Of a DNA stretch of 64,000 bases, positions 5,996-61,566 are shown in pieces (the stretch's first letter is position 1; the number at the start of each line of letters is the position of its first letter). The position numbers and the translations under genes are program-made. Below the pieces are notes generated by a model that was given only the letters and a program-made list of their open reading frames with translations, had not been told where the DNA came from and did no database searches. Origin of the DNA: Salinispira sp. (lineage in GTDB: Bacteria; Spirochaetota; Spirochaetia; DSM-27196; Salinispiraceae); assembly GCA_965226555.1 (NCBI GenBank), contig CBDDDG010000002.1, positions 32,001 to 96,000 on the forward strand, given 5' to 3'.

Positions 5996-7335
5996 GAAAC
6001 CTTTGAATAACTCCATTATATCTGCCGGTAGTCTTTTTTCCACGCAGAAAAAATTATTCATCGTTTTTCACGTTATTCTCTTCAGCATCCTCCGTCTTTT
6101 TTCGGCGCGATACGCGCTATATTCGTTCTTTTTTTCATCTTTTTTCAGTATTTCCCTCATTTCCGGCAGCAGTACCGCCATAAGGGCACAGCTATCCTGT
6201 TGTTATGCCGCAACCGCAGAGTTTTCCGGCGCCATGTTCCCCATTCGCCGTTTCATGCCGATCATCTGTTTCAGATTATACATAATCGCCATACACATAA
6301 ACCGACTCTGATTCCTCTGAACTCCCATATACCGCGCCTTTCTTGCGCCGCAATGGAGTTTGCTCAGCCCAAAAAACCGCTCCACCGTATTCCTTACGCG
6401 CGACCGCCCGTAATTCGCCTGCTTCTGCTCATCGGTTAACGGTGTGTTCCGATACGCCCGCTCATGTATTTGATTCTCTATGCCCATCTCCTCAAGCATC
6501 GCAGCAATCGCTTTACTCCGGTACGCGGCATCCGCGTACACCACCGTCTCATTTCCCATAATCAATTCGCCAAATAGTTTGCTGTCATGAATATTGGCCG
6601 CAGTCACCAGCAGTTTCTTCGCCCGTCCCTTCTCATTTACCGTCACGTGTATCTTGAAACCGTAGGTTGTTCGTACCGTTCCATCGCCTCCCTTCTTACT
6701 CGCGTAGGCCGCTTCAGGATCCTGTGTCGATTCTCCTGCGTCATTTTTTTTCTTCCGATGCCGCGAAGCCTGTATGACACTCGCATCAATTATGCTGACT
6801 GTGCCCCGGTGCACTTCACAATCCTGCGTGTCCAACTGCGCATTCACCGTGTCCAAGAGCGCACTGAGAATATTCTTACGGGTCAGTTGTTCCCGAAACC
6901 GCCATATCGTGGAATGATCGGGAGTATCATCGAGAACATTGAGCCCCACAAAACGCTTGTATGCCAAGTCGCAGGCAAGCGCATTTTCCATGCCTTCATC
7001 GCTGAGATTCTGCCACGATTGCAGCAACAGCACTTTGAACATCATAACCGGATGATATCCTTTCGCGCCCATCGATTTGTTGTTGATAGCACAGAGCATC
7101 TCCCCAATTTCCTTCCAATTGATCAGTTCATACAGGCTATCGAAGCGTTTCAGCGCTTTACTTTCCTGAATACCCTGATTGATCAGCGATCCATGATGTT
7201 CTTTCCAATTATTTCCCATTGTGTTCTCCTGTTTCAGCGCCGGACAGCGCGCAATACAACCCGATTGCTCATTCCCAGCTCTCTGTGTGAATTTTCTTCA
7301 AAATACCATTATTCCCGATGATGTGCAAAGGTTTC
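5996..7335 (-). mobile_element. IS5-family (IS1106-like) insertion sequence
   Basis: Terminal IRs gaaacctttgaata / tgtgcaaaggtttc; encloses DDE transposase. Confidence 0.9.
6203..7219 (-). CDS. IS5-family DDE transposase
   Basis: PDHSTIWRFR, IIDASVI, YGFKIH, VYADAAY, RNTVERFFG. Confidence 0.95.
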   Translation of the reverse strand: MGNNWKEHHGSLINQGIQESKALKRFDSLYELINWKEIGEMLCAINNKSMGAKGYHPVMMFKVLLLQSWQNLSDEGMENALACDLAYKRFVGLNVLDDTPDHSTIWRFREQLTRKNILSALLDTVNAQLDTQDCEVHRGTVSIIDASVIQASRHRKKKNDAGESTQDPEAAYASKKGGDGTVRTTYGFKIHVTVNEKGRAKKLLVTAANIHDSKLFGELIMGNETVVYADAAYRSKAIAAMLEEMGIENQIHERAYRNTPLTDEQKQANYGRSRVRNTVERFFGLSKLHCGARKARYMGVQRNQSRFMCMAIMYNLKQMIGMKRRMGNMAPENSAVAA

Positions 7336-7829
7336 AAGTAATACAAGCTACCGCATTACGGCATTGAAAGACAGTACCGCGCTGGCAAACGGCACCGCGT
7401 ATAATGTGGAAGTATGGGTTCGCGCACAGAACGCGGCGGGCGATGGCGCGTGGCTGAAATCGACTCCTTCTGCCTCGGTAACTCCTGCTGATGTTGTTCC
7501 CAACAAGCCCGCACCTCCAACACTTACATTAGATAGTACGGGTGGATTTACTATTGCATGGACAGCGCCGACCGACAATGGCGGCAGTGCCATTACCGCG
7601 TATCAACTGCGATTGAGCGTAAATGATGCAGACTGGACTGAAAGTGCTATTTTGAACGTTATCTTGAGCACATATAATGCTTCAAGCAATACTAACTCAG
7701 GCGACACATACGTGATGCAAGTACGTGCCATTAACGCTACGGGTAATAGTGAGTGGTCGGAATCGTCTAATACGCTTACTATTCCATAACTGCACGCTGT
7801 AGACGCCGGCGCGGTACATGAGTGAGCGC

Positions 7830-7908
7830 GCCGGCTGGTCGGAGGCTCGCGCCTCCTGGGCTGGTCGCGCTTCCGCGCTGCTCGCCCGGGCATCCGGCTT
7901 GCCATGCG
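7830..7908. repeat. GC-rich REP-like repeat cluster
   Basis: ggctggtcggaggctcgcgcctcc and ctcgcccgggcatccgg motifs shared with 9505-9700 and other island junctions. Confidence 0.7.
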
Positions 7909-8069
7909 GCTGTTGCTGTGGTGCTGGCAAATTGAATTGAACACAGGAGTTGCAGCGCGAAAACCCGCGTTGCAGCTCCTGTATGTATGCGGGCAGCGCA
8001 AACTGCAAAAATTCTGCAAAATTTTCTCAGTACATCATTCACCATGCGCGCATACCCCGTTTATGTGGT

Positions 8070-8240
8070 ATGAGCGAAAAATATATAGGCATGGTGCACG
8101 ATCAAAGCTGGAAATATGCTTTTGAAAATCCTCAGATATTCCGGGATTTCATCCATTCATACTTCAACAAGGACCTCGCGCGGAGGATTTTCCCCGGGGG
8201 CGTGGAGCGTATCGACACAGAGCATACCAGCCCCCATTCC
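8070..8240 (+). pseudogene. Truncated N-terminus of a further Rpn-like gene, forming part of the cassette leader
   Basis: MSEKYIGMVHDQSWKYAFENPQIFRDFIHSYF resembles Rpn N-terminal HD..F...P..DF motif; recurs degraded before other Rpn copies. Confidence 0.55.
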
Positions 8241-8574
8241 CGACTCCCCGAAAAAAATCACAACATTCTTTCAAAAAACATAGTCAAAAATGACATTTTA
8301 CCCGTCACAGATGTAGGAGGAAAATGTATGAAAAAATCATCCCACAGCACAGGCCACATCCACGACATAGCCTTCAAGATCGCCTACAAAAACCCCCGGA
8401 TGATTCCCGACCTACTGCGGCTGTTCTGTGAGGATACAACGCTTACCAAGCTGGACATGGACAAAATCCGCATTGAAACCCCCAGCTACATTGCAGGAAA
8501 AAAGAACCTTCACTGCGATCTCGTTGTCAGCGCCCCCTTCCTGTCAGACCCCGACCGGAAAGCCCTTTTTATTA

Positions 8575-8701
8575 CTGAAAATTTTGCTCCGCAAAATTTT
8601 CCAATGAGGATTCTCTTATCTATACTCTTGATTCTCTCACGGTATAGAAAGTTTTGCCTTGGAAAATTGTGCAAGCACAATTTCCAGTAGCAAAACTTTC
8701 G
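8575..8701. mobile_element. 127-bp palindromic MITE-like element flanked by TA duplication
   Basis: TA at 8573-8574 and 8702-8703; ends ctgaaaattttgc / gcaaaactttcg; two internal hairpins. Confidence 0.8.
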
Positions 8702-9203
8702 TATTGAACACAAAAGCTACCAGCACAAACATGCGCTCACTCAGATTGATAATTATCAGCATGCCCTCAGAAACAGCAATGTGTATAATGAAAATGATGC
8801 TATCTATATACTTCTGTTCTACCACGGAAAAAAGGAATGGAACCTCCCACGCTCATTTTACAGTTCACATGGAAATCCAACCTCCGAATCCCTTACCGAA
8901 GGCACGGTGGATGTCAAGGTGAAAGTGTCGTACATTGTGCGCGATCTGAGGCGAATGGACAAGAAGCAGTTGGCATTGCGCTCCGATGAAAAACGATATA
9001 CATCGACTGCATTGTGGTATATTATGAGAGATAATGAGATGGACACTGAGGGGCTGAAAGAGATTGCGCAGCTCCTGAACGGTCTGTCATCACAAGACTT
9101 TACTGATCTGGCAGAAAGTGTGTTAGGCTATCTAAAAGATTTGGGACTGTATGAACAGTTTGAGAAAATTAACAGGGAACTGTACCCTGAAGGAGAAAAC
9201 AGT

Positions 9204-9482
9204 ATGCGGACATATAACATGACCAACGCCTTCGTCAGGGAAGGCATTGCGAAGGGCCGGATTGAGGGTCTTGAACAGGGAATGGAGAAAGGTATTCTGA
9301 AAGGCCTTGAGCAAGGACAAGCTGAGAACCAGCGTGAGATTGCATTCAAAATGCTCAGGAAGGGTATGTCGATGGATATTATTCATGAGTTAACCGAGCT
9401 CAGCGAAGATGAAATTCGAGCATTTCAGAAAAACGGCCAGAAAAATGGCAGGGGAAACGGTAGGAAAAACGATAAAGAGTAG
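9204..9482 (+). CDS. Putative internally initiated RpnS-like small protein (92 aa)
   Basis: AAGGAG-N8-ATG in frame within Rpn gene. Confidence 0.6.
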   Translation: MRTYNMTNAFVREGIAKGRIEGLEQGMEKGILKGLEQGQAENQREIAFKMLRKGMSMDIIHELTELSEDEIRAFQKNGQKNGRGNGRKNDKE

Positions 9483-9512
9483 CAACGCAGCCACGTCGGC
9501 GTTGCGCCTCCT

Positions 9513-9645
9513 GGGCTGGTCGGAGGCTTGCGCCTCCTGCTCGCCATGCGTCCGGGCTGGTCGGAGGCTTGCGCCTCCTGCTCGCCATGCGTCCGGGCTG
9601 GTCGGAGGCTTGCGCCTCCTGCTCGCCATGCGTCCGGGCTGGTCG
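9513..9645. repeat. Tandem 41-bp GC-rich repeat (3 identical units + partial)
   Basis: gggctggtcggaggcttgcgcctcctgctcgccatgcgtcc at 9513, 9554, 9595; internal hairpin GGAGGC-ttgc-GCCTCC. Confidence 0.9.
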
Positions 9646-9725
9646 CGCTCCGCGCTGCTCGCCCGGGCATCCGGTTCGCCATGCATCCGGGGCTGGTCGG
9701 GGTAGATTAAAAAGTAATATTCCAT

Positions 9726-17623: not shown

Positions 17624-17996
17624 AGTGATTCCTCCCGTATTATATCAGACTAAAGGTTCTTTGTGTACCATGGGGTGGCTTAGTCGGCGCTGCGCGCAGG
17701 CCGAGCGGCGATAATTAATGCGATCCGTTCCGCACTGTCCGCATTTCCTCATCGCTCAGCCCGGTAATCCTCTGAACAGCCTCAGTTGACAAGCCTTCCG
17801 AAAACATACTGCGGGCCGTTTCTCGAATGCCTCTCGCCATTCCCAGCTCAAGACCTTCAACCTTGCCTCTCTCCATTCCTTCCGCAAGACCTTCAACCTT
17901 GCCTCTCTCCATTCCTTCCGCAAGACCTTCAACCCGTCCTTGGTTGACAAACCAATCACTCATCTGAACTTTTTTCATCATAACCCTTTCTCCTCC

Positions 17997-18126
17997 AGAA
18001 ACTTTTGCATTGGAAAATTGTGCAGAGCACAATTTCCAGTAGCAAAAGTTTCACATTTGGATAACTCTATGTGCTTAGCATTCTCGCATTTTGTAGAAAG
18101 TTTTGCCTGTGGCAAAACTTTGTTTC
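17997..18126. mobile_element. 130-bp palindromic element upstream of RpnS start
   Basis: Close to 35616-35745 in sequence and position. Confidence 0.8.
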
Positions 18127-18550
18127 GGGATTAATTTCCCTGTTGATTTTTTCAAAGCGTGTATCCAGTTTCAAGTCTTCATCGCCTGTCTTACTGACTT
18201 TCCGCATAATATAGCACAGGGCTCCCCCTGTCAACACAACCCCATCTGACCCACGGGTAAACTCCTCCTCACTCATCCTATTCACATCGACCATAACAGG
18301 CCTATTGAGAACCTTTGGCCTCGCAAGGTATTTTTTCATCATTGTGTACAATTTTTCCGGTATGTGTGTATGCACATCCCCTGAACTGTAGAAACTGAGA
18401 TCTCCTTCCCATAGTGCTTCGCCATGATACCATAGAACCAGAACAAGAAGGTCGGTCTGCGCCTGAAATGTCCTGCTGTTTATGAGGGCTTTCTGGTATT
18501 TATCGAACTGTTCGCTGACCTTCGGATCAAACATGCTTTTGTGCTCAATA

Positions 18551-18605
18551 CGAAAGTTTTGCTACTGGAAATTGTGCTTGCACAATTTTCCAAGGCAAAA
18601 CTTTG
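18551..18605. mobile_element. 55-bp hairpin module of palindromic element
   Basis: cgaaagttttgc...gcaaaactttg; adjacent TA 18549-18550. Confidence 0.8.
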
Positions 18606-18996
18606 TCTTAAACGCAATATCATGGATATTGTATCCGGCATTACTCATACATACCTCCTGTTATATCTATAACGGGTAAACTGTCATTTTTAACTATGTT
18701 TTTTGAGAAAATTTGAAAGAATTTTGCAAAATGTGTGAATTTTTTTCAGGGAGACAGGAATGGGGGGCTGATGTGCTCTGAGTCGATGCGCTCTATGCTC
18801 CCGTGGACAATGTTCAGCGCGAGGTCTTTGTTGAAGTATGAATGGATGAAGTCCCGGAATATCTGAGGATTTTCGAAGGCATATTTCCAGCGTGTACCAT
18901 ATCGATATATTTTTCGCTCATACCATATAGACGGGTTACATATGAACGGTGAATATGAGAAATTTTTGTAATTATTTTTATTATTTTGAGATATTA

Positions 18997-19210: not shown

Positions 19211-20929
19211 CTACTCTACAAACCATGACGGAATCAGATCACCTGTTACGCCGGAACCTGCGAACATATTTGTTTTGATTCCGGTATATGTGCCATTGTT
19301 CCAGTTAGCATTGTTCCAGTAAACCGCAGGATCAACCGAGTTATTCCATGCCCACTTCTCAAGATCTTGATTGAATGCGCTTGCGTTCTGGAACATCGTT
19401 CTCATACTCGTTACATTACTGACATCCCAGCCGGAGATATCGCCATTGAATGAGCTTGCGTTCTGGAACACAAATCGCATATCCGTTACCGAACTGACAT
19501 CCCAACCCGAAATATCGCCATTGAATGCGCTTGAAAAAGCGAACATAGTGCTCATAGTCATTACCTTACTGACATCCCAACCGGAAATGTTGCCATTGAA
19601 TGCGGATGCAAATACGAACATCCCCGCCATATCCTCTACCGAACTGACATCCCAGCGTGAAATATCGCCATTGAATGCGCTTGCAGCATCGAACATCCGA
19701 TGCATAATCGTTACCGCGCCAGTATCCCAGAGTGAGATATCGCCATTGAATGCGGTTGCGTCCTTGAACACATTGGACATAATCGTTACTGCCGAGGTAA
19801 TAATGTAGTTGAGATCGGCAGTATTGCCCCAAGCTGTTATTCCCGCAGTTACCGCGGCGTCCAGTGCAGCGTTATCAGCAGGACTCACGGTAACGTAAAA
19901 ATACTCGGCAAACAGTATGTCTGTGCCTCCAGATTCAGTGCCATATACCAGATATGTTCCGGCTGTTGTACCCGCAGCAACCGTAACAACTCCGGTACTC
20001 GCACTAACTGCCGGAATGGTAACCCCATCGGGTGCAGTTGCGGAGGTTACCGTAATGACTCCTGATCCACTAACAGCGAGAGTGTCCGGTTGCACCGTGG
20101 TCAATGAAACGGTTGGGATCTGAGCAGCAATAATGGTCATAGCGGCAGCCGAAAGGTTTACCGTCGCTGCCGTACCCGCGGGAGTCTGTTTCGATGAAAT
20201 TATCACCAGCGTTGCCGTTGCTGGTGTAGACCAGCCGCCATTGCCCACAGCGTTAACAGCGCGCACCCGTACTTGGTAGGATGTACCGTTTGTCAGCCCG
20301 GTAATGGTGTAGCTCGTGGTACCGTCATTAATAGTGGCGATGTTATCTGTATCAGCCGTTGACCATGTGCCGGAGGCGCTTGTTCTGTGCCACACATGGT
20401 ACCCGGTAATTGCGCTGCCGCCGTTATCGGTTGGCGCAGTCCATGTGGCAATGAGCAACCCATTCCCCACTTCAAGGGTTGGAGCAGCCATGGTACCCGG
20501 CGCGGCAGGGGGCGCAGTTGACGGTGCAATAGGTGTTGCCGTGGAAGATGCCGACCAGCCGCCAGTGCCGATAGCGTTGACAGCGCGTACCTGCACGGCA
20601 TAGCTGACGCCGTTTGTCAGCTCGGTAATGGTATGGCTTGTGCCGATAATACCGGAGTTAATCCCGTCCCAGATCTCGCTGTCGACTTGTCGATAGCGCA
20701 GGTCATACGAGGTAATATCGTTGTCCGTGTTGTTCTCCTTCCACCCCCAATTCCATGTCGTAGGATCAACCCATGATGCGGTAAGTTGTCCGTTCCCTGC
20801 TTCGAGAGTTGGAACAAATATGGCAGGCGGCACTGTTATCATTGAACATCCCGAAATCAATGCAATAAAAATTGAGCAGAAAATGAAAAGGGCTACCCCC
20901 CCCCCCCAACTGTATGACGTAATTTTCAT
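19211..20929 (-). CDS. FN3 (x2) + DUF285/BspA-like repeat (x6) surface lipoprotein; G12 tract in frame
   Basis: Lipobox LISGC; 25-aa [15 protein letters not shown] repeats. Confidence 0.9.
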
Positions 20930-30220: not shown

Positions 30221-30973
30221 TTAAAAATCCGTTGAAAAAACAGTTTTATTGCCTGCAGAGTTAAATTCTACTAATTTATTCCAATTTATGGTGCCATTAG
30301 TCAGGCAAAAATGGTTTGTGAATTCCTTGGTAAACAAATTAATCATTGCTGCATATAATTTTTGAAAATCATCATTTCTTTCCTTTGCCTTATAACCTAA
30401 GGGCTGAATAATTTTTGTATATAAATTCTCATCTCCTGAAATAAATTCCCAAAATTGTTGTCCGCAGAATTTGTAGTAGTCTCCTTTGTCAGGACGGTTA
30501 TCTTTTCCGTAGCAACATCCATTTACGGGCTTTATATACAATTTTGAGTTACCTGTACGCAAGGTTCTTATTGCAGTCGTAAAATCGGACTTCATTTTAG
30601 CGATCTGACTGCTGTTTCCCCAGTTAGGACCAGATTTAATAGCCACAATGTAGCGAATTTTATCTTTCTCAAATTCAAGATCAATGCCTGTTATTCCCGA
30701 TTTCCATCCTTCATAAACCTTCTTATTAATAAAGATAGCGAGTCCTTCAAGCCAGTCGCCAAATATTGTTTCTTCATTTGAAGAAAGGAAAGCGTCTGAA
30801 ATGCTTCTGATAATTTGCTCAGCAGTAAGCAAATATTTAGCCCTGAAAAGATACGGATTTTTTTTGCTTAATACAGTTTGAAGACGTAAGGATTGAAGTC
30901 GGGCCACTCGTTTGTCGTGAAACCTCCCTATGTTTTCTTCAACGTACTGCAACACATCATCAATTTTTAACAC
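30221..30973 (-). CDS. Type II restriction endonuclease (EcoO109I/PmeII-like)
   Basis: KKNPYLF, EETIFG, GIDLEF...IKSGPNWGN; overlaps MTase gene; AT-rich. Confidence 0.8.
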   Translation of the reverse strand: MLKIDDVLQYVEENIGRFHDKRVARLQSLRLQTVLSKKNPYLFRAKYLLTAEQIIRSISDAFLSSNEETIFGDWLEGLAIFINKKVYEGWKSGITGIDLEFEKDKIRYIVAIKSGPNWGNSSQIAKMKSDFTTAIRTLRTGNSKLYIKPVNGCCYGKDNRPDKGDYYKFCGQQFWEFISGDENLYTKIIQPLGYKAKERNDDFQKLYAAMINLFTKEFTNHFCLTNGTINWNKLVEFNSAGNKTVFSTDF

Positions 30974-31874
30974 TATTGAAAATCTCCGCTGGCTTTTCGA
31001 AAAGATATAATTCCACAGACTCCGTCTTATTTCTCACCATTTTATAATATTCCGGCACAATGTCAATTCCAACTGAATGCCTGAGCATTTTGCCGGCAGC
31101 AATATTTGTTGTACCGCTGCCCATAAAGGGGTCAAGCACCGTATCGTATTCCTTTGTAAAAAGTTTAATAAACCACCGCGGCAGTTCTTCTGGAAAGGCT
31201 GCGCTGTGGTTTTTGTTGGCGCACTCTGTTGCAAGGTGAAGTACGTTTGCGGGATATGCCATGTCTCTTGTGAGCCAGTTGGAAATGTTTTTTCCAAACC
31301 CGCTTCCGACATGGGATTCATCCCGAATTTTGTCGGTGGCACTCAGATTTTTCAGCCGGTTTTTTGCCCAGGCGCCCATTGGAACCATGACTGCTTCCTG
31401 ATACATGTTGAATTTTTTTGATTTATTAAACTGCAGAAGCCGTTCCCATGCATCCCGAAATCGATTGGGCCACTTTCCGGGATAACAGTTTTTCTTGTGC
31501 CATATAAATTCCTCAGTCCAGAGCCACCCCTGTTTTTTCATTTCGAGAATCAGTTCTATGACATAGGTACTGCGCTCTCCGTTTGTAACTTTTTCTTTAA
31601 TATTTAATACAAACGTTCCCGTTGGTTTCAAAACCCGTAAAAATTGCTCTGTTTTCGGCAGGAACCACTCAACATATTTTGCCGGATGAATACCGCCATA
31701 TGTCTTTTTTCTCTGGTCGGCATAAGGAGGCGATGTAAAAATAAGGTCAATACTGTTTGCGGGAATACTCTTTAATATTTCACCGCAATCGCCAAGAAAA
31801 CAGTCTGTTCTGATTTCAGGGCTTGTTTGTCCCTGAAAATTCTGATTGGGCGCTTGAATACCATCGGCTTTCAT
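30960..31874 (-). CDS. Beta-class amino DNA methyltransferase (SPPY; probably m4C)
   Basis: TSPPY precedes HSAAFP and LDPFMGSGTT. Confidence 0.9.
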   Translation of the reverse strand: MKADGIQAPNQNFQGQTSPEIRTDCFLGDCGEILKSIPANSIDLIFTSPPYADQRKKTYGGIHPAKYVEWFLPKTEQFLRVLKPTGTFVLNIKEKVTNGERSTYVIELILEMKKQGWLWTEEFIWHKKNCYPGKWPNRFRDAWERLLQFNKSKKFNMYQEAVMVPMGAWAKNRLKNLSATDKIRDESHVGSGFGKNISNWLTRDMAYPANVLHLATECANKNHSAAFPEELPRWFIKLFTKEYDTVLDPFMGSGTTNIAAGKMLRHSVGIDIVPEYYKMVRNKTESVELYLFEKPAEIFNSVKN

Positions 31875-32077: not shown

Positions 32078-34417
32078 GTGCTGTGGGGTTTTCTCATCAT
32101 ACTGACATTGCTCGTCGCGGCCTGCCCAATGTCGAAACCAACACCAGTGCCCATGGACATGGATACATCGCCCCTAATAGGCGTGTGGACCGCGGATAAT
32201 GGGTTTCATACCATAGAATTCACCGCCACAATGTACATAGACAAGTTTTCGGGTTTGATTTGTGATTACACGGATAACGGGAACTCAATTACGCTCAGTA
32301 ATTGTATGGGAGTCGAAGGAGCGGAAAACCTTAATGGGGCAACGGTAGAGTATACCATTGATGGAGATACCTTAACATTTGATGGCACTACCTATACCCG
32401 GCAGAATTCAGATGTACCTGAACCAACCGTGCCGGGCACCATGGCTGCCCCAAGCCTTGAAGCGGGGAATGAGCAACTAAGGGTTAACTGGACTGCGCCG
32501 GAAGAAACCGGCGATAGTGAAATTACCGCGTATGAACTTCGCCATAGCGATGACGGCGGGAGCAGCTGGTCGGAGGACATTACTACAGCCGACGCGCCAG
32601 CCACAGAGACCATCATCACGGGACTGACAAACGGCACCCCCTACGTCGCGCAGGTGCGCGCACGGAACAGCGCGGGCGCAGGCGAATGGTCGGAATCGAG
32701 CGCAGAAGCAACACCTATTGGCGTTTCCCTCGCGCCGAATGGGTTCATGCTTGCAGTGAGTATGCAAACAATTACCGCAACATGGACTGCGCCGACCGAT
32801 ACTGGCGACAGCCCCATTATTCGCTATGAACTGCAACATCGCGTAGCCGGAGTAAGCGCGTGGGAACCTGTCATTGCCACCGCCGATGCCGACACCCTGA
32901 CTCTCCCCATCCCCAACCTGACAAAAGGTGCCGAGTACGAGGTGCAGGTCTACGCTGTCAATGGTCAGGGCAATGGTAACCCAACGGAAATTAAGAAAAT
33001 AACAATTCCGGCTACCAAACCCAGCGCGATGAATGCTCCCACGCTCACAACCGGAGACAACAATCTCACAGCGACATGGACAGCACCCGATGATGACGGA
33101 GGCAGCGCAATTACCGCGTACCATGTGCAGTATAGTTCAGACGGCGAAAGCGCTTGGACGGCGGTCACCGACATTATAAGTGCTACTGCCGCAAGCCACA
33201 CCATTACGGGACTGGTAAGCGGTACCTCCTACAATGTGCAGGTGCGCGCCGTCAATGCGGTGGACAATGGCGACTGGTCTGCATCCGCAACGGAAACGGC
33301 GCGGATTATTGGAACACAGGCTCCCTTTGGTACGGCAGCATCCGTCATTCTTTCGGCTGCTATTAATACCCAAATTGCCGATGAGATCCTCACCGTTACT
33401 TTGGCTACGGCTACTACCCCGGTCGCAGGGGTTACCGTTGCCCTGCCGACAGTTAATGCAAGTACCGGAATTATTACGGTTACCGCAACAACAACGGCAG
33501 GAACATATGTGGTATCCGGCGCAACCGGAGGAGAAAACAAGTTTACCGAAAAGTTTTATGTTACCGTGAGTCCTACTACTAACGCCGAACTGGACACACA
33601 GGTAGCTGCGGGGATATCAACTTGGGGCAATACTGCCGATCTCAACTACATTGTTACCACGGCAGTAACGGATATGTTAGGGGTATTCCTCGGTGCATAC
33701 TTATTCAATCAAGATATCTCCGGTTGGGATGTCAGTTCGGTAACGAATATGAGAAGTATGTTAAGGGGCGCAAATTCATTCAATGGCGATATCTCCGGTT
33801 GGGATGTCAGTAAGGTAACGGATATGTCCAATATATTCTATGAAGCAGCCAAATTCAATAGCGATATCTCTAGCTGGAATGTCAGTAAGGTAACGAATAT
33901 GTTCAGTATGTTTAGGAATGCAGGCGAATTCAATATCGATATCTCCAGTTGGGATGTCAGTAAGGTAACGAATATGTCCAATATGTTCTATGAAGCAACC
34001 AAATTCAATAGCAATATCTCCCAATGGACGACTAACGCTGTAGAGGATATGGCCAGTATGTTCGCCGCAGCACAGGCATTCAATGCCGATATTTCCGAAT
34101 GGGATGTCAGTAAGGTAACGAATATGTCCCTTATGTTCTTTGGGGCGCAAGCATTCAATGCCAATATTTCCAGCTGGAATGTCGATAAGGTAACGAATAT
34201 GAGACGGATGTTCAGTGGCGCAACCGCATTCAGTCAAGATCTTAACAACTGGGCGAAGGATGCGAATGGTAACAACTTGACCACTGGCAGCTGGAACAAT
34301 GGCACATATACCGGAAACAAAACAAGTATGTTTGTGGATTCCGGCTTGGATTCGGGTGATACAACGGATCCGGAGACTGCTGTGACCCAACCGAATTATC
34401 CATCATGGTATTGGTAG
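32078..34417 (+). CDS. FN3 (x3) + DUF285/BspA-like repeat (x8) surface lipoprotein; native RBS/ATG deleted
   Basis: Lipobox LVAAC; N-terminus near-identical to 4510 gene but lacks the 4489-4538 equivalent. Confidence 0.8.
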   Translation: MLWGFLIILTLLVAACPMSKPTPVPMDMDTSPLIGVWTADNGFHTIEFTATMYIDKFSGLICDYTDNGNSITLSNCMGVEGAENLNGATVEYTIDGDTLTFDGTTYTRQNSDVPEPTVPGTMAAPSLEAGNEQLRVNWTAPEETGDSEITAYELRHSDDGGSSWSEDITTADAPATETIITGLTNGTPYVAQVRARNSAGAGEWSESSAEATPIGVSLAPNGFMLAVSMQTITATWTAPTDTGDSPIIRYELQHRVAGVSAWEPVIATADADTLTLPIPNLTKGAEYEVQVYAVNGQGNGNPTEIKKITIPATKPSAMNAPTLTTGDNNLTATWTAPDDDGGSAITAYHVQYSSDGESAWTAVTDIISATAASHTITGLVSGTSYNVQVRAVNAVDNGDWSASATETARIIGTQAPFGTAASVILSAAINTQIADEILTVTLATATTPVAGVTVALPTVNASTGIITVTATTTAGTYVVSGATGGENKFTEKFYVTVSPTTNAELDTQVAAGISTWGNTADLNYIVTTAVTDMLGVFLGAYLFNQDISGWDVSSVTNMRSMLRGANSFNGDISGWDVSKVTDMSNIFYEAAKFNSDISSWNVSKVTNMFSMFRNAGEFNIDISSWDVSKVTNMSNMFYEATKFNSNISQWTTNAVEDMASMFAAAQAFNADISEWDVSKVTNMSLMFFGAQAFNANISSWNVDKVTNMRRMFSGATAFSQDLNNWAKDANGNNLTTGSWNNGTYTGNKTSMFVDSGLDSGDTTDPETAVTQPNYPSWYW

Positions 34418-34751: not shown

Positions 34752-36084
34752 ATGAAAAAATCATCCCAGAGCACAGGCCATATCCACGACATAGCCTTCA
34801 AGATCGCCTACTACAGAACCCCCCGTATGATTCTCGACCTGCTGCGGCTGTTCTGTGAGGATACAACGCTTTCCAAGATGGACATGGACAAAATCCGCAT
34901 TGAAACCCCCAGCTACATTGCAGGAAAAAAGAACCTTCTCTGCGATCTCGTTGTCAGCGCCCCCTTCCTGTCAGACCCCGAGCGGAAAGCTCTGTTTATT
35001 ACTGAAAATTTTGCTCCGCAAAATTTTCAAATGAGGATTCTCTCATCTATACTCTTGATTCTCTCACGGTATAGAAAGTTTTGCCTTGGAAAATTGTGCA
35101 AGCACAATTTCCAGTAGCAAAACTTTTGTATTGAACATAAAAGCTACCAGCACAAACATGCGCTTACTCAAATCGATAACTATCAATATGCCCTCAGAAA
35201 CAGCAATGTGTACAATGAAAATGATGCTATCTATATACTGCTGCTCTACCATGGAAAAAATGAATGGAACCTCCCACTCACATTTTACAGTTCACATGGA
35301 AATGCTGCTTCCGAATCCATGATCGAAGGCACGGTAGATGTCAAGGTGAAAGTGTCGTACATTGTGCGCGATCTGAGGCGAATGACAAAGAAGCAGTTGG
35401 CATGGCGTTCCGATGAAAAACGATATACATCGACTGCATTGTGGTATATAATGCGAGATAATAAAATGGATGCTGAGGGGCTGAAAGAAATTGCGCAGCT
35501 CCTGAACGGTCTGTCTTCACAAGACTTTACTGATCTGGCAGAGAGTGTGCTGGGCTATCTAAAAGATCTGGGACTGTATGAACAGTTTGAGAAAATTAAC
35601 AGGAAACTATATCCTAGACAAAGTTTTGCCACAGGCAAAACTTTCTACAAAATGAGAGAATGCCAAGCGCAACGAGGTCTGCCAAATGTGAAACTTTTGC
35701 TACTGGAAATTGTGCTCTGCACAATTTTCCAATGCAAAAGTTTCAGGAGGAGAAAACAGTATGCGGACATATAATATTACCAACGCCTTCGTCAGGGAAG
35801 GCATTGCGAAGGGCCGGATTGAGGGTCTTGAACAGGGTATGGAGAAAGGTATTCTGAAAGGCCGGGTTGAAGGTCTTGAGCAGGGAATGGAGAAAGGCAT
35901 TCTGAAAGGAATGGAGAGAGGTATTCTGAAAGGCCAACAGGAAGGACTGCGAACAGGTCGTGAAGAAGGCATTCGAGAAACGGCTCGCAGTATGTTTTCC
36001 AAAGGATTTTCAGCCCATGACATTCAGGATGTTACCGGGCTGAGCGATGAGGAAATTCGGACAGTGCGGAACGGATCGCATTAA
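34752..36084 (+). pseudogene. Rpn type A copy 2; inserts at 35002-35128 (in-frame TAG) and 35616-35745 (frameshift); RpnS-like ORF 35761-36084
   Basis: Alignment by eye with 8328-9482. Confidence 0.85.
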
Positions 36085-37943: not shown

Positions 37944-39391
37944 ATGAAAAAATCATCCCAGAGCACAGGCCATATCCACGACATAGCCTTCAAGATCGCC
38001 TACTACAGAACCCCCCGTATGATTCCCGACCTGCTACGGCTGTTCTGTGAGGATACAACGCTTTCCAAGATGGACATGGACAAAATCCGCATTGAAACCC
38101 CCAGCTACATTGCAGGAAAAAAGAACCTTCTCTGCGATCTCGTTGTCAGCGCCCCCTTCCTGTCAGACCCCGAGCGGAAAGCTCTGTTTATTACTGAAAA
38201 TTTTGCTCCGCAAAATTTTCAAATGAGGATTCTCTCATCTATACTCTTGATTCTCTTACGGTATAGAAAGTTTTGCCTTGGAAAATTGTGCAAGCACAAT
38301 TTCCAGTAGCAAAACTTTTGTATTGAGCACAAAAGCTACCAGCATAAACATGCTCTCACTCAAATCGATGACTATCAGCATGCCCTCAGAAACAGCAATG
38401 TGTACAATGAAAATGATGCTATCTATATACTTCTGTTCTACCACGGAAAAAAGGAATGGAACCTCCCACTCACATTTTACAGTTCTCATGGAAATGCTGC
38501 TTCCGAATCTATGACTGAAGGCACGGTAGATGTCAGGGCGAGAGTGTCGTACATTGTGCGCGATCTGAGGCGAATGACAAAGGATCAGTTGGCATGGCGC
38601 TCCGATCAGCGCTTCAATGGAAAACGATATACATCAACTGCGTTGTGGTATATTATGAGAGATAATAACAAAGTTTTTCCTAAAGGAAAAACTTTCTATA
38701 CCGTGAGAGAATCAAGAGTATAGATGAGAGAATCCTCATTTGAAAATTGTGCAGAGCACAATTTTCAGTGAAATGAACGCTGAGGGGCTGAAAGAGATTG
38801 CGCGGCTCCTGAACGGTTTGTCATCACAAGACTTTACTGATCTGGCAGAGAGTGTGCTAGGTTACCTGAAGGACTTGGGACTGTATGAACAGTTTGAGAA
38901 AATTGACAGGGAACTGTACCCTAGACAAAGTTTTGCCACAGGCAAAACTTTCTACAAAATGAGAGAATGCCAAGCGCAACGAGGTCTGCCAAATGTGAAA
39001 CTTTTGCTACTGGAAATTGTGCTCTGCACAATTTTCCAATGCAAAAGTTTCAGGAGGAGAAAACAGTATGCGGACATATAACATAACCAACGCCTTCGTC
39101 AGGGAAGGCATTGCGAAGGGCCGGATTGAGGGTCTTGAACAGGGTATGGAGAAAGGTATTCTGAAAGGCCGGGTTGAAGGTCTTGAGCAGGGAATGGAGA
39201 AAGGCATTCTGAAAGGAATGGAGAGAGGTATTCTGAAAGGCCAACAGGAAGGACTGCGAACAGGTCGTGAAGAAGGCATTCGAGAAACGGCTCGCAGTAT
39301 GTTTTCCAAAGGATTTTCAGCCCATGACATTCAGGATGTTACCGGGCTGAGCGATGAGGAAATTCGGACAGTGCGGAACGGATCGCATTAA
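37944..39391 (+). pseudogene. Rpn type A copy 3 with three inserts (38194-38320, 38667-38769, 38923-39052); RpnS-like ORF 39068-39391
   Basis: Comparison with empty sites in 8328 copy. Confidence 0.85.
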
Positions 39392-42263: not shown

Positions 42264-43563
42264 ATGAAAAAATCATCCCACAGCACAGGCCACATCCACG
42301 ACATAGCCTTCAAGATCGCCTACTACAGAACCCCCCGTATGATTCCCGATCTGCTGCGGCTGTTCTGTGAGGATACAACACTTGCCAAGCTGGACCTGGG
42401 CAAAATCCGCATTGAAACCCCCAGCTACATTGCAGGAAAAAAGAACCTTCACTGCGATCTCGTTGTCAGCGCCCCCTTCCTGTCAGATCCCGAGCGGAAA
42501 GCTCTATTTATTACTGAAAATTTTGCTCCGCAAAATTTTCAAATGAGGATTCTCTCATCTATACTCTTGATTCTCTCACGGTATAGAAAGTTTTGCCTTG
42601 GAAAATTGTGCAAGCACAATTTCCAGTAGCAAAACTTTTGTATTGAACACAAAAGCTACCTGAATAAACATGCTCTCACACAGATTGATGACTATCAGCA
42701 TGCCCTCAGAAACAGCAATGTGTACAATGAAAATGATGCTATCTATATACTGCTGCTCTACCATGGAAAAAATGAATGGAACCTCCCACTCACATTTTAC
42801 AGTTCACATGGAAATGCTGCTTCCGAATCCCTTACCGAAGGCACAGTGGATGTCAGGGTAAAAGTGTCGTACATTGTGCGCGATCTGGGGCGAATGACAA
42901 AGAATCAATTGGCATGGCGTTTCGATGGAAAACGATATACATCGACTGCGTTGTGGTATATAATGCGAGATAATAAAATGGATGCTGAGGGGCTGAAAGA
43001 AATTGCGCAGCTCCTGAACGGTCTGTCTTCACAAGACTTTACTGATCTGGCAGAGAGTGTGCTGGGCTATCTAAAAGATCTGGGACTGTATGAACAGTTT
43101 GAGAAAATTAACAGGAAACTATATCCTAGACAAAGTTTTGCCACAGGCAAAACTTTCTACAAAATGGGAGAATGCCAAGCGCAACGATGCATGCCAAATT
43201 TGAAACTTTTGCTACTGGAAATTGTGCTCTGCACAATTTTCCAATGCAAAAGTTTCAGGAGGAGAAAACAGTATGCGGACATATAATATTACCAACGCCT
43301 TCGTCAGGGAAGGCATTGCGAAGGGCCGGATTGAGGGTCTTGAACAGGGTATGGAGAAAGGTATTCTGAAAGGAATGGAAAAGGGCATTCTGAAAGGCCG
43401 GGTTGAAGGTCTTGAGCAAGGACAAGCTGAGAACCAGCGTGAGATTGCACTCAGAATGCTCAGGAAGGGTCTGTCGATAGACCTTATTCATGAGTACACC
43501 GAGCTCAGCGGGGATGAAATTCGAGCATTTCAGAAAAACGCCCAAGAAAACGGTAAAAAATAG
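42264..43563 (+). pseudogene. Rpn type A copy 4; inserts 42514-42640 and 43128-43257; RpnS-like ORF 43273-43563
   Basis: As other type A copies. Confidence 0.85.
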
Positions 43564-49420: not shown

Positions 49421-49475
49421 CGAAAGTTTTGCTACTGGAAATTGTGCTTGCACAATTTTCCAATGCAAAAGTTTC
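49421..49475. mobile_element. 55-bp hairpin element just upstream of Rpn RBS
   Basis: Absent from 36614, 39876 and 59757 leaders; same site at 58118-58172. Confidence 0.8.
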
Positions 49476-50044: not shown

Positions 50045-52329
50045 CTAATACCATGATGGATAATTTGGTTGATCCCCACTATCGTCATTACTAGCCGGAT
50101 TCGCATCCAAACCGGAATCCAAAAACGTATCTGCTTTGCTTCCGGTGTATTGGCCAGCGGCATTGAGCGTCCCGGCAGCAGTCGACCAATGATCCTTCCA
50201 CTCCTCAAGATTTTGACTGAATGCACTTGCAGAATAGAACATAGAGCCCATATTCGTTACCTTACTGACATTCCATCCGGAAATATCGCCATTGAATGCG
50301 ATTGCTCCATTGAACATCCCCAACGTACTAATTACCGAACTGACAACCCAGCCGGAAATATCGCCATTGAATGCGATTGCTCCATTGAACAGGAAGTCCA
50401 TATTCGTTACCTTACTAACATCCCATCTGGAGAGATCCTGATTGAATACAGTTACTCTATCGAACATATTGCTCATATTCGTTACCGAACTGACAACCCA
50501 TCCGGAAATATCGCCATTGAATACATATGCTTGAGAGAACATCCCCGACATAATCGTTACCGAACTGACATCCCATATCGAGATGTCGCCATTGAAATAG
50601 TATTTTAGCGCGAACACCTCGTCCATATCCGTTACTGCCGTGGTAATAATGTAGTTGAGATCGGCAGTATTGCCCCAGGTTGATATCCCCGTATTTACCT
50701 TCAATTTCAGATCGGCAAGAATTTCTGCGGCATCACTACCAGCATCATCGGCATACTTATTATCTTCATCTTGAGGCCTCACGGTAACATAAAACTTTTT
50801 GGTAACCCGTGTATTCTCATCGGTTCCGTCTATGACAGATACATTGTATGTTCCTGCCGTTGTCGTTGCGGTAACCGTAATAACTCCGGTACTTGAGTCA
50901 ACTGTCGGAGGGGTAACCGATGTCCCTGAAGTAACCCCAGCCACAGTAACGCTTGGATTCTCCGCATTGGCAGCGGCGTCATCAATATCAGCCGAAAGAA
51001 TGACGGATGTTGTTGATGTACCAAAGGGAACCCGTGCCGCAAGCGGCAGCAATGTTCTCGTTGCGGATAATGACCAGTCGCCATCGCCCACCGCGTTGAC
51101 GGCGCGCACCTGCACATCGTAGGTGGTACCGTTTGTCAAGCTCGGGATGGTGTAGCTCGTACCACTGATAGGGTTGCCCGGGGCCGCCGTCCAAGTACTT
51201 CCGCTGTCTGAACTATACTGCACATCATACCCGGTAATGGGGCTGCCGCCGTTGTTGGGCGCTGTCCATGACGCGGTGATCTGGGCGTTTCCGGCTGTGA
51301 GCGTGGGAGCATTCGGCGCGCTGGGAACGGTAGCGGGGGTTGCGGTGCTAGTCGCTGGGTTGCCATTGCCCTCTGTATTGACAGCGTAGACCCGCACCTC
51401 GTACTCGGTGCCGTTTGTCAGGTTGGGGATGGGGTGGGTGTAGGTGTGGTTGGGGTCGGCATTCACAGCAATAGAAACAGGATTTCCCCACTCGCCTGCT
51501 CCAACTTCGTGATGTTGCAGTTCATAGCGAATAATAGCGCTGTTGCCAGTATCGGTCGGCGCTGTCCATGTTGCTGTAATTGTCGTATCGTCCGCTACGA
51601 GCGTAAACGCAGTCGGCGCCAAGGAAACGGTAATAGGGGTTGCTTCTGCGCTCGATTCCGACCATTCGCCTGCGCCCGCGCTGTTCCGTGCGCGCGCCTG
51701 TACGGTGTACGCGGTGCCGTTTGTCAGGCCAGTGATGATGGTCTCTGTGGCTGGCGCGTCGGCTGTAGTAATGTCCTCCGACCAGCTGCTCCCGCCGTCA
51801 TCGCTATGGCGAAGTTCATACGCGGTAATGTCGCTGCCGCCGCTTTTTTCCGGCGGAGTCCAGTTAACCGTTAGTTGAGCATTCCCCGCTTCAAGGCTTG
51901 GGGCGTCCATGGTGCCCGGCACGGTTGGTTCAGGTACATCTGAATTCTGCCGGGTATAGGCAGTGCCATCCAATGTTAAGGTATCTCCATCAATGGTATA
52001 CCCTACCGTTGCCCCATTACGGTTTTCCGCTCCTTCGACTCCCATACAATTACTGAGCGTAATTGAGTTTCCGTTATCCGTGTAATCACAGGTCAAACCC
52101 GAAACACGGTCTATGAACGTTGTCGCGGTGAATTCTATGGTATGAAACTCATTATCCGCGGTCCACACGCCTATTAGGGGAGATGTATCCATGTCCATGG
52201 GCACTGGTTCCGGTTTCGGCATTGGTTCCGGTTCCGGCATTGGACATCCGACAAGCAGCGCAATGAACATTGCACATAGGAGGAAGAGGGTTACCCCCCC
52301 CCCCCACTTTTCAATAACGTAGTTCGCAT
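50045..52329 (-). pseudogene. FN3 (x3) + DUF285 (x6) surface lipoprotein, out of frame at G12 tract (candidate phase-OFF)
   Basis: GAGGT-ATG 52329: MRTTLLKS-GGGG-TAA; G13 or G10 joins to ORF 52270-50045 with lipobox LVGC. Confidence 0.8.
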
Positions 52330-58102: not shown

Positions 58103-58584
58103 ATAATTCCTCCTGAACGAAAGTTTTGCTACTGGAAATTGTGCTTGCACAATTTTCCAATGCAAAAATTTCTGAACGTTTCTTTCTGAATAGGGGAGCT
58201 CCCATGGCGACATGGTCCCATGGTGAATTCTCCCCTCTATATATGTGACGGGTAAACTGTCATTTTTGACTATGTATGTGGAAAGAATTTTGCAAAATGT
58301 GTGATTTTTTTTGGGGCTACGGGAGGGGAGGGCGCTGAAATGCGGGTTAGTGGACGGGAAGGGGTGCGCGTCTATGGCGATATCCGACTGACTGGCGTAA
58401 GCGATAGCCCGAAAATTGAGCTGCGTGGGTCAGCGTGGTGCCATACCGATATAATCTTTTTCCATACCATATAGACGGGTAAAATATGACCGGTGAATAT
58501 GAGAAATTTTTTGCAGAAAATTTCTATTATTTTGGGATATTGACCTGAACCCGCCGCATGGGCGCGCAGGCCGAGCAACGTCAA

Positions 58585-59757: not shown

Positions 59758-60009
59758 ACAATCCTCCTGAAGGTTTTTTTGAACGTTTCTTTCTGAATAG
59801 GGGAGCTCCCATGGCGACATGGTCCCATGGTGAATTCTCTCCTCTATAATCTGTGACGGGTAAACGGTCATTTTTGACTATGTTTTTTGAGAAAATTTGA
59901 AAAAAGTTTGCATTTTGTAAAACTTTGTGGTATTATTCAGTAACCGCAGAAATAATGGCGGACGCCGTCAGATTTTTTCTGAGGAAAAATTACCTTGGAG
60001 GTAACATAT

Positions 60010-61566
60010 ATGAAAATTATGTCATACAGAGGAATAACTCTTTTCACTTTCTGTGCAATGGTTATTGTGTTGATGGCGGGGTGTCCGATGCTAACCGCGC
60101 CGCCTGCCATGTATTCTCCAACTCTCACAGCGGGAAGCGAACAGCTTACCGCATTGTGGGTTGATCCGACTACATGGAATTGGGGGGAAAACAACGCAGG
60201 AAACGCCATTACCGCGTACAACCTGCGCTATGGTGAAGTCGGTAGCGAGGGCTGGACGGAGATTATCTCCGGTATTACCGGCGCAAGCCACACCATTACC
60301 GACCTGACAAACGGCGTCAATTATGCTGTGCAGGTACGCGCCGTCAACGCGCAGGGCACCGGCGGCTGGTCGGCATCTGCCACGGCAACACCTATTGCGC
60401 CAACTGCGCCCCCTGCCCCGCCGGGTACCATGGCTGCCCCAACCCTTTATGCGGGAACTGGGCGGCTCGTTGCGACATGGACTGCGCCAATCGATAACGG
60501 CAGCAGCCCCATTACCGGGTATGAATTGCAATATCGCACAGGCGGCGGAGCATGGACACAAATTACCGAAGGCATCACCGGTACAGACCACAGCATTACG
60601 GGACTGACAAACGGCTCCCCCTACCAAGTACAGGTGAGCGCCGTCAATGCGGTTGGCGATGGCCCATGGTCTCCATTTACAATAGGAAGGCCGCAAAGGA
60701 CACAGACTCCTGTGGGTACGGCAAGGGTTGTAAGCCTTTCAGATGCCGTTAATGTTATTATTGCCAGTGAGAACCTCAGCATTTATTTGACCACGGTAGA
60801 GTCTGGCACGTACGCGGTCGATGAATCGGGAAACATTACGGTAACCCCCGCAACGACGCCCGATGGGGTCACCATTCCGACAGTTAATGCGAATACTGGA
60901 ATTGTTACGGTTACCGCAGGTACAACGGCAGGAACATATCTGGTATATGGTGAAACAGAAAGCGGCGACAAACTCTTTGCCGAATATTTCTATGTTACCG
61001 TGCGTCCTCACGATGGCGATGGTACTGGTGTTACTGATAATGATGGTGATGGCGGTAACGATGAACTGGACGCCGCGGTAGCTACGGGGATAACCACTTG
61101 GGGACAAACTGCCGACCTCAACTACATTGTTACCGCGGCAGTAACGGATATGTCCTTGATGTTCAATAACAACAGCGTATTCAATGGCGATATCTCCGGT
61201 TGGGATGTCAGCTCGGTAACGAATATCTCCGCAATCTTCAGTTTCACAGACGCATTCAATGGCGATATCTCTGCTTGGGATGTCAGTTCGGTAATGAATA
61301 TGTCCCAGGCTTTCCAGCAAGCAAGAGCATTTAATCGTGATATCTCAGCTTGGGAGCCTGCCGCGGTAACGAATATGAACAGGATGTTCAAGGACACAGG
61401 CACATTCAATCAAGATCTTGAGGAATGGAAGGATCATTTGACACTTGATGCCAATGGCAAATTTACCGGAAACAAAACAAATATGTTTAGGGATTCCGGT
61501 TTAGATTCGAATCCGAATACTAATGATGATAGTGGGCCTCAACCGAATTATCCGTCATGGTATTAG
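60010..61566 (+). CDS. FN3 (x2) + DUF285 (x4) surface lipoprotein, no poly-G tract
   Basis: GGAGGT RBS; lipobox MAGC; N-terminus similar to 20929 gene. Confidence 0.9.
   Translation: MKIMSYRGITLFTFCAMVIVLMAGCPMLTAPPAMYSPTLTAGSEQLTALWVDPTTWNWGENNAGNAITAYNLRYGEVGSEGWTEIISGITGASHTITDLTNGVNYAVQVRAVNAQGTGGWSASATATPIAPTAPPAPPGTMAAPTLYAGTGRLVATWTAPIDNGSSPITGYELQYRTGGGAWTQITEGITGTDHSITGLTNGSPYQVQVSAVNAVGDGPWSPFTIGRPQRTQTPVGTARVVSLSDAVNVIIASENLSIYLTTVESGTYAVDESGNITVTPATTPDGVTIPTVNANTGIVTVTAGTTAGTYLVYGETESGDKLFAEYFYVTVRPHDGDGTGVTDNDGDGGNDELDAAVATGITTWGQTADLNYIVTAAVTDMSLMFNNNSVFNGDISGWDVSSVTNISAIFSFTDAFNGDISAWDVSSVMNMSQAFQQARAFNRDISAWEPAAVTNMNRMFKDTGTFNQDLEEWKDHLTLDANGKFTGNKTNMFRDSGLDSNPNTNDDSGPQPNYPSWY

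Follow-up and report, generated by a model that had tools for sequence, protein, structure and literature searches.

The window analysed here, the whole 64,000-nucleotide stretch (C2:32001-96000) of a 2.98-Mb genome whose assembly is 93.5% complete, contains four Rpn genes of one subfamily, type A, each of which gains 129 bp in frame between the residues LFI and IEHKS. The sole in-frame stop of this insert is a TAG codon (positions 8688, 35115, 38307 and 42627 in copies 1 to 4 respectively) that lies within a 54-nt hairpin. The features referred to below, including those of a gene of a second subfamily, type C, and an IS5-family element, are as follows:

5996..7335, minus strand: IS5-family element, ISAba23-like, with its transposase at 6203-7219; its ends and 5-bp duplication match those of the MITE, and it is the likely mobiliser
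8328..9482, plus strand: type A Rpn gene, copy 1, in which the MITE is the only lesion
8572..8576, plus strand: left copy of the degenerate 5-bp target duplication, TTACT (empty site TTATT)
8577..8700, plus strand: 124-bp MITE of copy 1, consisting of a 25-nt hairpin, a core and a 54-nt nested hairpin, with the TAG at 8688-8690
8701..8705, plus strand: right copy of the degenerate 5-bp target duplication, GTATT
9204..9482, plus strand: predicted internal antitoxin ORF (RpnS) of copy 1, intact and with a ribosome-binding site of its own; role assigned by analogy with PMC10400941
17998..18122, minus strand: another MITE of the type C gene, situated upstream of the start of RpnS
18552..18605, minus strand: 54-nt hairpin in the type C gene (17715-18648, minus), where 197 coding bases are lost
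35004..35127, plus strand: catalytic-site MITE in type A copy 2 (gene 34752-36084)
35619..35744, plus strand: second MITE of copy 2, adding 130 bp and a frameshift, just upstream of the RpnS ribosome-binding site
38196..38319, plus strand: catalytic-site MITE in type A copy 3 (gene 37944-39391)
38669..38766, minus strand: second MITE of copy 3, adding 103 bp and a frameshift
38926..39051, plus strand: third MITE of copy 3, adding 130 bp
42516..42639, plus strand: catalytic-site MITE in type A copy 4 (gene 42264-43563)
43131..43256, plus strand: second MITE of copy 4, adding 130 bp and a frameshift

A sequence-only reading of the window had described this in-frame insert with its single hairpin TAG, and its positions are correct for all four genes. 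We also reproduce its comparison of copies 1 and 2, which differ at 3 positions within the element and in 6 of the first 19 codons after it, all synonymously. However, that reading took the insert to be 127 bp plus a TA duplication, and it is in fact 124 bp flanked by a degenerate 5-bp duplication (TTACT and GTATT, from TTATT). The insert region folds far more stably than shuffled sequences (z = -6.2), and the 124 bp contain neither a transposase gene nor other coding capacity, with stops in four of the six translated frames. Past the TAG only copy 1 stays open, copies 2–4 being frameshifted further downstream by other MITEs.

The interrupted genes belong to the Rpn family, as shown by a PF04754 domain with the residues D, D and E-x-K/Q, which in carriers is split by the insert. 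There are approximately 191 Rpn loci in the genome (7% of its length), 77 of them of type A, as against 0–6 Rpn matches in each of 30 relatives. The insert had been thought common to five Rpn genes; this is true of the four type A genes in the window, but it is carried by just 14 of the 75 type A loci that we aligned, and 52 have a readable clean empty site. The fifth gene, of type C, does have the hairpin at the same junction, although 197 coding bases are replaced there and the gene is not otherwise whole. The catalytic site is one of five MITE sites in the type A gene, which are filled in 14, 6, 18, 6 and 14–15 copies (catalytic site first), and it is the only one at which the insertion is always in frame; insertions at the other four add mostly 130–131, 103, 102–203 and 130–232 bp and mostly shift the frame. 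These frameshifting MITEs are as frequent and as conserved as the in-frame insert, and diversity inside the elements is similar across sites (0.027, 0.016 and 0.026). Of 61 near-complete type A copies, 33 are free of all five MITEs. Among the 14 carriers, eight (including window copies 2–4) have a second, frameshifting MITE, one further carrier has a deletion, and in four full-length carriers, window copy 1 among them, the insert is the sole lesion; nonsense point mutations are absent from the carriers.

Other features of the window may be recorded here. A GC-rich repeat family with tandem units of approximately 41 bp flanks the Rpn cassette (7820-7900 and 9500-9700), and one low-depth contig from run X1 skips 7885-9617 between these repeats. 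An expanded family of fibronectin type III and DUF285 repeat proteins is represented at 19211-20929, 32078-34417, 50045-52270 and 59995-61566, with long inverted homologies between its copies, and a type II restriction-modification pair (30221-31874, minus strand) comprises an EcoO109I-like endonuclease and an N4/N6 methylase.

The insert is one of a large number of related elements. Exact 11-bp hairpin arms occur 1646 times in the genome compared with 17 times in one shuffle, and they group into 499 clusters spanning 43 kb, of which 17 are in the window and 286 are distant from all Rpn genes; for 134 there is a paralogous site that is empty. Commonly, two hairpins enclose a core of about 45 bp (97–127 bp in all) or there is a single hairpin of 27 or 54 bp, these single hairpins being likely collapse products between direct arms. 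The elements are MITEs in that they are short, lack a transposase gene, have terminal inverted repeats (the 11-bp arms at both ends) and a target-site duplication and are dispersed in many copies, and the genome contains an IS5 element with the same ends and the same duplication length as a potential autonomous partner. Rpn genes contain 133 MITEs against 38 expected, a comparison from which no enrichment is drawn because the gene copies are not independent. A count of sites by clustering of their flanks was dropped, as it chained many sites together. The element was not found by DNA search among 30 relatives and the hairpin pattern is absent from all seven family genomes searched; in the species collection the nested-hairpin pattern has one match (L024:301-337), on a short and possibly mis-binned contig of an Anderseniella MAG.

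Copies of IS5, IS30 and IS1182 elements are inserted adjacent to or within MITE hairpins at C10:183311, C10:305320 and C23:12941. Several MITE sites are situated immediately 5' of a ribosome-binding site (window positions 35619-35744, 17998-18122, 49422-49475 and 58119-58172), and MITEs directly upstream of the ribosome-binding site of the RpnS start in types A and C, or of the gene start in type B, could change expression.

Analysis of the flanking bases provides further insight into how the element moves. Among the duplication lengths compared in 182 distinct MITE flank pairs, only the 5-mer exceeds the control, with a mean identity of 0.52 against 0.35 in shuffled pairs, and 2-mers are at control level (0.34 versus 0.33). 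At 24 independent MITE sites with empty paralogues there is a net gain of 5 bp, and the target consensus is approximately C-TAWTA-G. The proposal that this is an IS630/Tc1-type MITE with a TA duplication is therefore rejected, and the partner that does match is the IS5 element. Nine copies of this element are present in the genome, mostly 98–100% identical and one of them in the window, and its transposase scores above the cut-off for NF033581. Its ends, GAAACCTTTGC and GAAAC(C/T)TTTGA, are one to two bases from the commonest MITE arm, GAAACTTTTGC, and in seven of the nine copies the 5-bp duplication is perfect and, like that of the MITE, T-rich with a final A. ISAba23 shares with the resident element its first 13 terminal bases and a 5-bp duplication, with a transposase 46% identical; compared with these ISAba23-like IS5 elements the MITE lacks a transposase. 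Among the other IS families in the genome the ends that could be resolved did not match the MITE arm.

As the ends and the duplication length match, it is likely that the MITE is mobilised by the resident IS5 transposase. A point against this is that most of the MITE duplications are imperfect, only 40 of the 182 flank pairs having a perfectly duplicated 5-mer. At the 24 independent sites, the two duplicated bases adjoining the MITE mismatch the empty site in 35–41% of cases compared with 6–11% for the next three bases, a pattern that none of the mechanisms tested explains; carriage of donor flank bases along with the element is a candidate that would account for mismatches beside the ends. 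We also considered HUH/RAYT mobilisation. REP/REPIN and PATE elements, which are moved by HUH Y1 enzymes, are paired hairpins around a short spacer in hundreds of copies, and IS200/IS605 elements insert without a fixed-length duplication. The MITE resembles REP/REPIN and PATE elements in its paired hairpins and hundreds of copies, but we find no PF01797 (Y1 transposase) match in the 93.5% complete assembly and there is a fixed 5-bp duplication, and this route was rejected.

Published Rpn genes encode a toxic nuclease together with an internal small antitoxin (PMC10400941). In the present genome a ribosome-binding site together with an open RpnS ORF is found in 129 of 139 C-termini, and all of the MITE sites that we mapped in five subfamilies are upstream of the RpnS ORF; none of the 129 RpnS ORFs contains a MITE arm, and 43 have a MITE upstream. 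Because of this arrangement, and by analogy with the described genes, we predict that carriers are antitoxin-only loci. The apparent sparing of RpnS is not significant, because target-like sequence is three times rarer there (7.7 versus 24.2 per kb) and RpnS holds only 7–15% of the target weight.

The type A genes are shuffled on a very fine scale. Across 61 copies and 86 common SNPs, r2 is 0.41 at 1–2 bp, 0.09 at 6–10 bp and 0.03 at distances over 20 bp, the full set of four gametes being present in 98–99% of distant SNP pairs, and in a second subfamily (41 copies) the decay is similar but slower. At 37 common polymorphisms no two of the 61 copies have the same protein haplotype. Eight proteins from other assemblies, whose longest contigs match none in this one, combine residues of this pool into new mosaics and differ by 5–9% from the nearest copy here. 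Given these mosaics, which are themselves assembled data, an assembly artefact is an unlikely cause of the shuffling, and loss of mismatch repair was rejected because MutS and MutL are intact. The insert assorts freely with the flanking SNPs and with the other four type A MITE sites: its presence is at background linkage with the flanks (mean r2 0.01 over the 5 SNPs within 10 bp), as is that of three frameshifting MITEs, and filled copies are no more similar to one another beside the insert than empty ones (0.148 versus 0.147).

This shuffling bears on the synonymous divergence behind the TAG, which the sequence-only reading had noted. In the downstream part, the 11 carriers analysed have a dN/dS of 0.17, which compares with 0.21 for 29 intact copies and 0.23 for 18 copies broken in other ways. 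As the broken copies are equally low, the control fails, and the low ratio cannot show translation. Private changes are 6 synonymous to 4 non-synonymous in carriers and 13 to 27 in otherwise broken copies, a difference that is not significant (p = 0.15). The synonymous differences in the flanks are a product of the very fine shuffling between paralogues, through which dead copies acquire an equally low dN/dS.

The distribution of element subtypes points to how the insert reached its present positions. The 14 type A inserts are 96.7–100% identical and represent one element subtype confined to the catalytic codon, and other full-length MITE copies are at most 87% identical to it, with the exception of a type C copy at the same codon (92.7%). 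Of 419 hairpin ends, 14 have the variant T-GT-ATTGA, and every one of these is at the catalytic junction, ten in type A and four in a further subfamily, T4. The catalytic codon has thus been hit in three of the five Rpn subfamilies, and the chance of this by target preference alone is 0.003 for type C and 0.04 for T4. DNA identity to type A at the conserved I-E codons is 15 bp in type C and about 6 bp in T4. The simplest reading of these sequences is that the junction was copied between subfamilies via short identity at the conserved I-E codons. T4 is not fully explained, as it has the same rare junction joined to a different element subtype and recombination via about 6 bp would be needed. 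Conversion of the element into this site, which had been raised as one alternative, is supported by these data, since a single subtype is found only at this codon, is in linkage equilibrium with its flanks and has passed its rare junction by copying to two diverged subfamilies.

The type C genes show further rearrangement at this position. The distance from HD to IEHKS is 78 nt in the window type C gene as against 219 nt in four empty type C copies, and the 197 coding bases replaced by the hairpin include those for the second catalytic Asp; this loss is likely to be a deletion between two known MITE sites. Another type C copy, on C26, has a 128-bp frameshifting insert at the same codon plus two more MITEs. 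Two further type C genes (C21:54138 and C10:307993) have deletions or rearrangements that end exactly at the I-E codons beside a MITE arm.

We also looked for evidence that the insert can be lost. ACT, which is otherwise the base of the left junction in filled copies, is present at three of the 52 empty type A sites, and two of these three sites belong to intact genes; a joint of this empty type also occurs in run X4, which comes from a different study. These sites are as expected from precise loss, and the insert probably can be lost; a short conversion tract also fits, and 2 of the 14 carriers have the empty-site base at the ACT position. The empty joint is found in assembled contigs of all four sequencing runs, where empty paralogues produce the same joint, so that it is not assignable to a locus. 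Of the earlier suggestion of precise excision, what is left is possible loss on an evolutionary time scale, in view of the three footprint-like empty alleles, with no support for a switch.

We consider it probable that a genome-wide MITE, likely mobilised by IS5, landed once at the catalytic codon and was spread by conversion, creating null toxin alleles in which the TAG is incidental. In this model, the resident IS5 transposase would have mobilised the MITE, which would have inserted a single time, immediately ahead of the catalytic Glu in an Rpn gene; gene conversion would then have spread it among paralogues, with the short stretch of identical DNA at the conserved I-E codons giving access to diverged subfamilies. 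The products would be predicted null toxin alleles, in which nuclease activity is lost and the internal antitoxin ORF is still readable.

The model was weighed against three others. That the TAG is a programmed switch, bypassed by amber read-through, removal of the RNA hairpin or inversion of the hairpin interior, is the least probable and we give it hardly any weight. The insert does consist of 43 codons with one stop, and inverting the hairpin interior in silico opens the frame, but this inverted form, found eight times elsewhere in the genome, is seen in none of the 14 carriers in the assembled sequence. None of the 40 tRNAs in the 93.5% complete assembly has a CUA anticodon, the best PylS match scores 35.5 bits against a cut-off of 178, and no Rfam family reaches its gathering score in 8000-9600, while eight of the 14 carriers are frameshifted downstream in any case; the earlier suggestion of read-through or RNA removal as a reversible switch finds no support here. 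Nor is a self-splicing intron or IStron supported, as the insert has no group I/II structure match in 8000-9600 and is 124 bp long, or a homing intron or intein, as it has no endonuclease coding capacity and a stop in frame. TAG terminates 513 of 2449 ORFs, and the arm with the TAG belongs to the usual make-up of the MITE, 171 of its 216 copies lying outside Rpn nuclease regions; moreover, the same codon carries the 128-bp frameshifting insert in the type C gene on C26 and an in-frame TGA in T4 copies. E. coli RpnA needs E82/Q84, though Q84A stayed toxic (PMC5350276), and in our models the insert splits the strand predicted to hold the counterpart, E85-H-K87. These models were built from 20–21 sequences, a shallow alignment that makes them weak: in the intact paralogue residues 79–87 form one confident strand with E85-H-K87, whereas on read-through the insert takes over this strand, with a Glu from its first codons in step with the catalytic Glu, and IEHKS ends up in a segment of pLDDT below 50. 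It is likely that the in-frame TAG is incidental rather than a switch.

Homing of the element, that is repeated insertion at the catalytic codon by site-specific transposition or nuclease-initiated homing, we regard as very improbable. It would be consistent with the lack of linkage between the insert and even the nearest SNPs and with the three subfamilies hit at one codon, and if flank bases travel with the element then repeated insertions would share the degenerate junction. However, the 124-bp element encodes no endonuclease, other MITE sites are equally unlinked, the target preference of the transposase is loose and yet this subtype occurs nowhere else, and only about one fifth of type A loci are filled, fewer than at one of the frameshifting sites. 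The third model holds that the MITE alleles form a selected on/off pool, in which conversion and precise loss would switch Rpn loci between toxin-plus-antitoxin and antitoxin-only states as a combinatorial defence library. In its favour are the ACT-bearing empty sites and the matching joint in run X4, the absence of MITE arms from RpnS ORFs, the distinctness of all 61 haplotypes with new mosaics of the same pool in other assemblies, and the contrast with the few Rpn matches in relatives. Against it, the scarcity of targets in RpnS renders the sparing non-significant, ACT is movable by a short conversion tract, and the same picture is predicted by neutral drift in a converting family; we think it unlikely, notwithstanding these points in its favour. 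The landing of an IS5-mobilised MITE followed by conversion is the model that we retain.

Rickettsia palindromic elements are about 100–150 bp long, keep the reading frame open and are translated. These elements, which are named in PMC3184786, are likewise in-frame palindromic repeats inside genes, but the present insert bears a stop and most of its sibling insertions shift the frame. Bacterial MITEs mobilised in trans by a cognate insertion sequence are likewise short and non-coding, with terminal inverted repeats, a target duplication, high copy number and stable stem-loops, and some make in-frame fusions with host ORFs (PMC3184786). Compared with these, each end of the present element is a two-arm hairpin, often nested, collapsed forms of 27 and 54 bp occur commonly, replacement of the two duplicated bases beside the ends is frequent, and the partner is an IS5 element with a 5-bp duplication. 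The host genes have in common with the Rpn/YhgA toxin-antitoxin genes, as these are described in PMC10400941 and PMC5350276, PF04754, the D-D-E-x-K/Q residues, an internal ribosome-binding site and start, and a small C-terminal protein with variable four-residue repeats. They differ in that there are about 190 loci here compared with 26 in the example given in PMC10400941, in the shuffling of the nuclease domains at a scale of about 10 bp, and in the many copies broken by MITEs. A search of the literature, outside which lay subscription papers and supplements, yielded no paper dealing with MITEs in Rpn genes or with shuffling among Rpn paralogues. We consider the MITE family to be new, although its kind is known: it is likely to have an IS5 element as its partner, and it segregates as null alleles among Rpn genes that undergo conversion.

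The finding is ordinary in kind, being a MITE knock-out, and adds a MITE family for which a likely IS5 partner is identified and in which, unusually, the two duplicated bases adjoining each end are often replaced. It also carries a warning, namely that where the genes of a family convert one another, low dN/dS behind a stop codon is uninformative. Of more interest than the insert is the lead offered by the pool of about 190 shuffled Rpn genes. A speculative and rather doubtful possibility is that these genes constitute a combinatorial library, whose domains would be reshuffled by very short conversion tracts, perhaps started by the nucleases, and in which MITEs would serve as portable off alleles, copied into and lost from the catalytic codon across subfamilies that are only about 30–40% identical, with toxins silenced and antitoxins kept. 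Rpn genes are known to act as toxin-antitoxin units against phages, their mobility being unclear, and their shuffling here, despite intact MutS and MutL, offers a natural test system in which to ask whether Rpn nucleases drive their own recombination, and how toxin dosage is kept in check.
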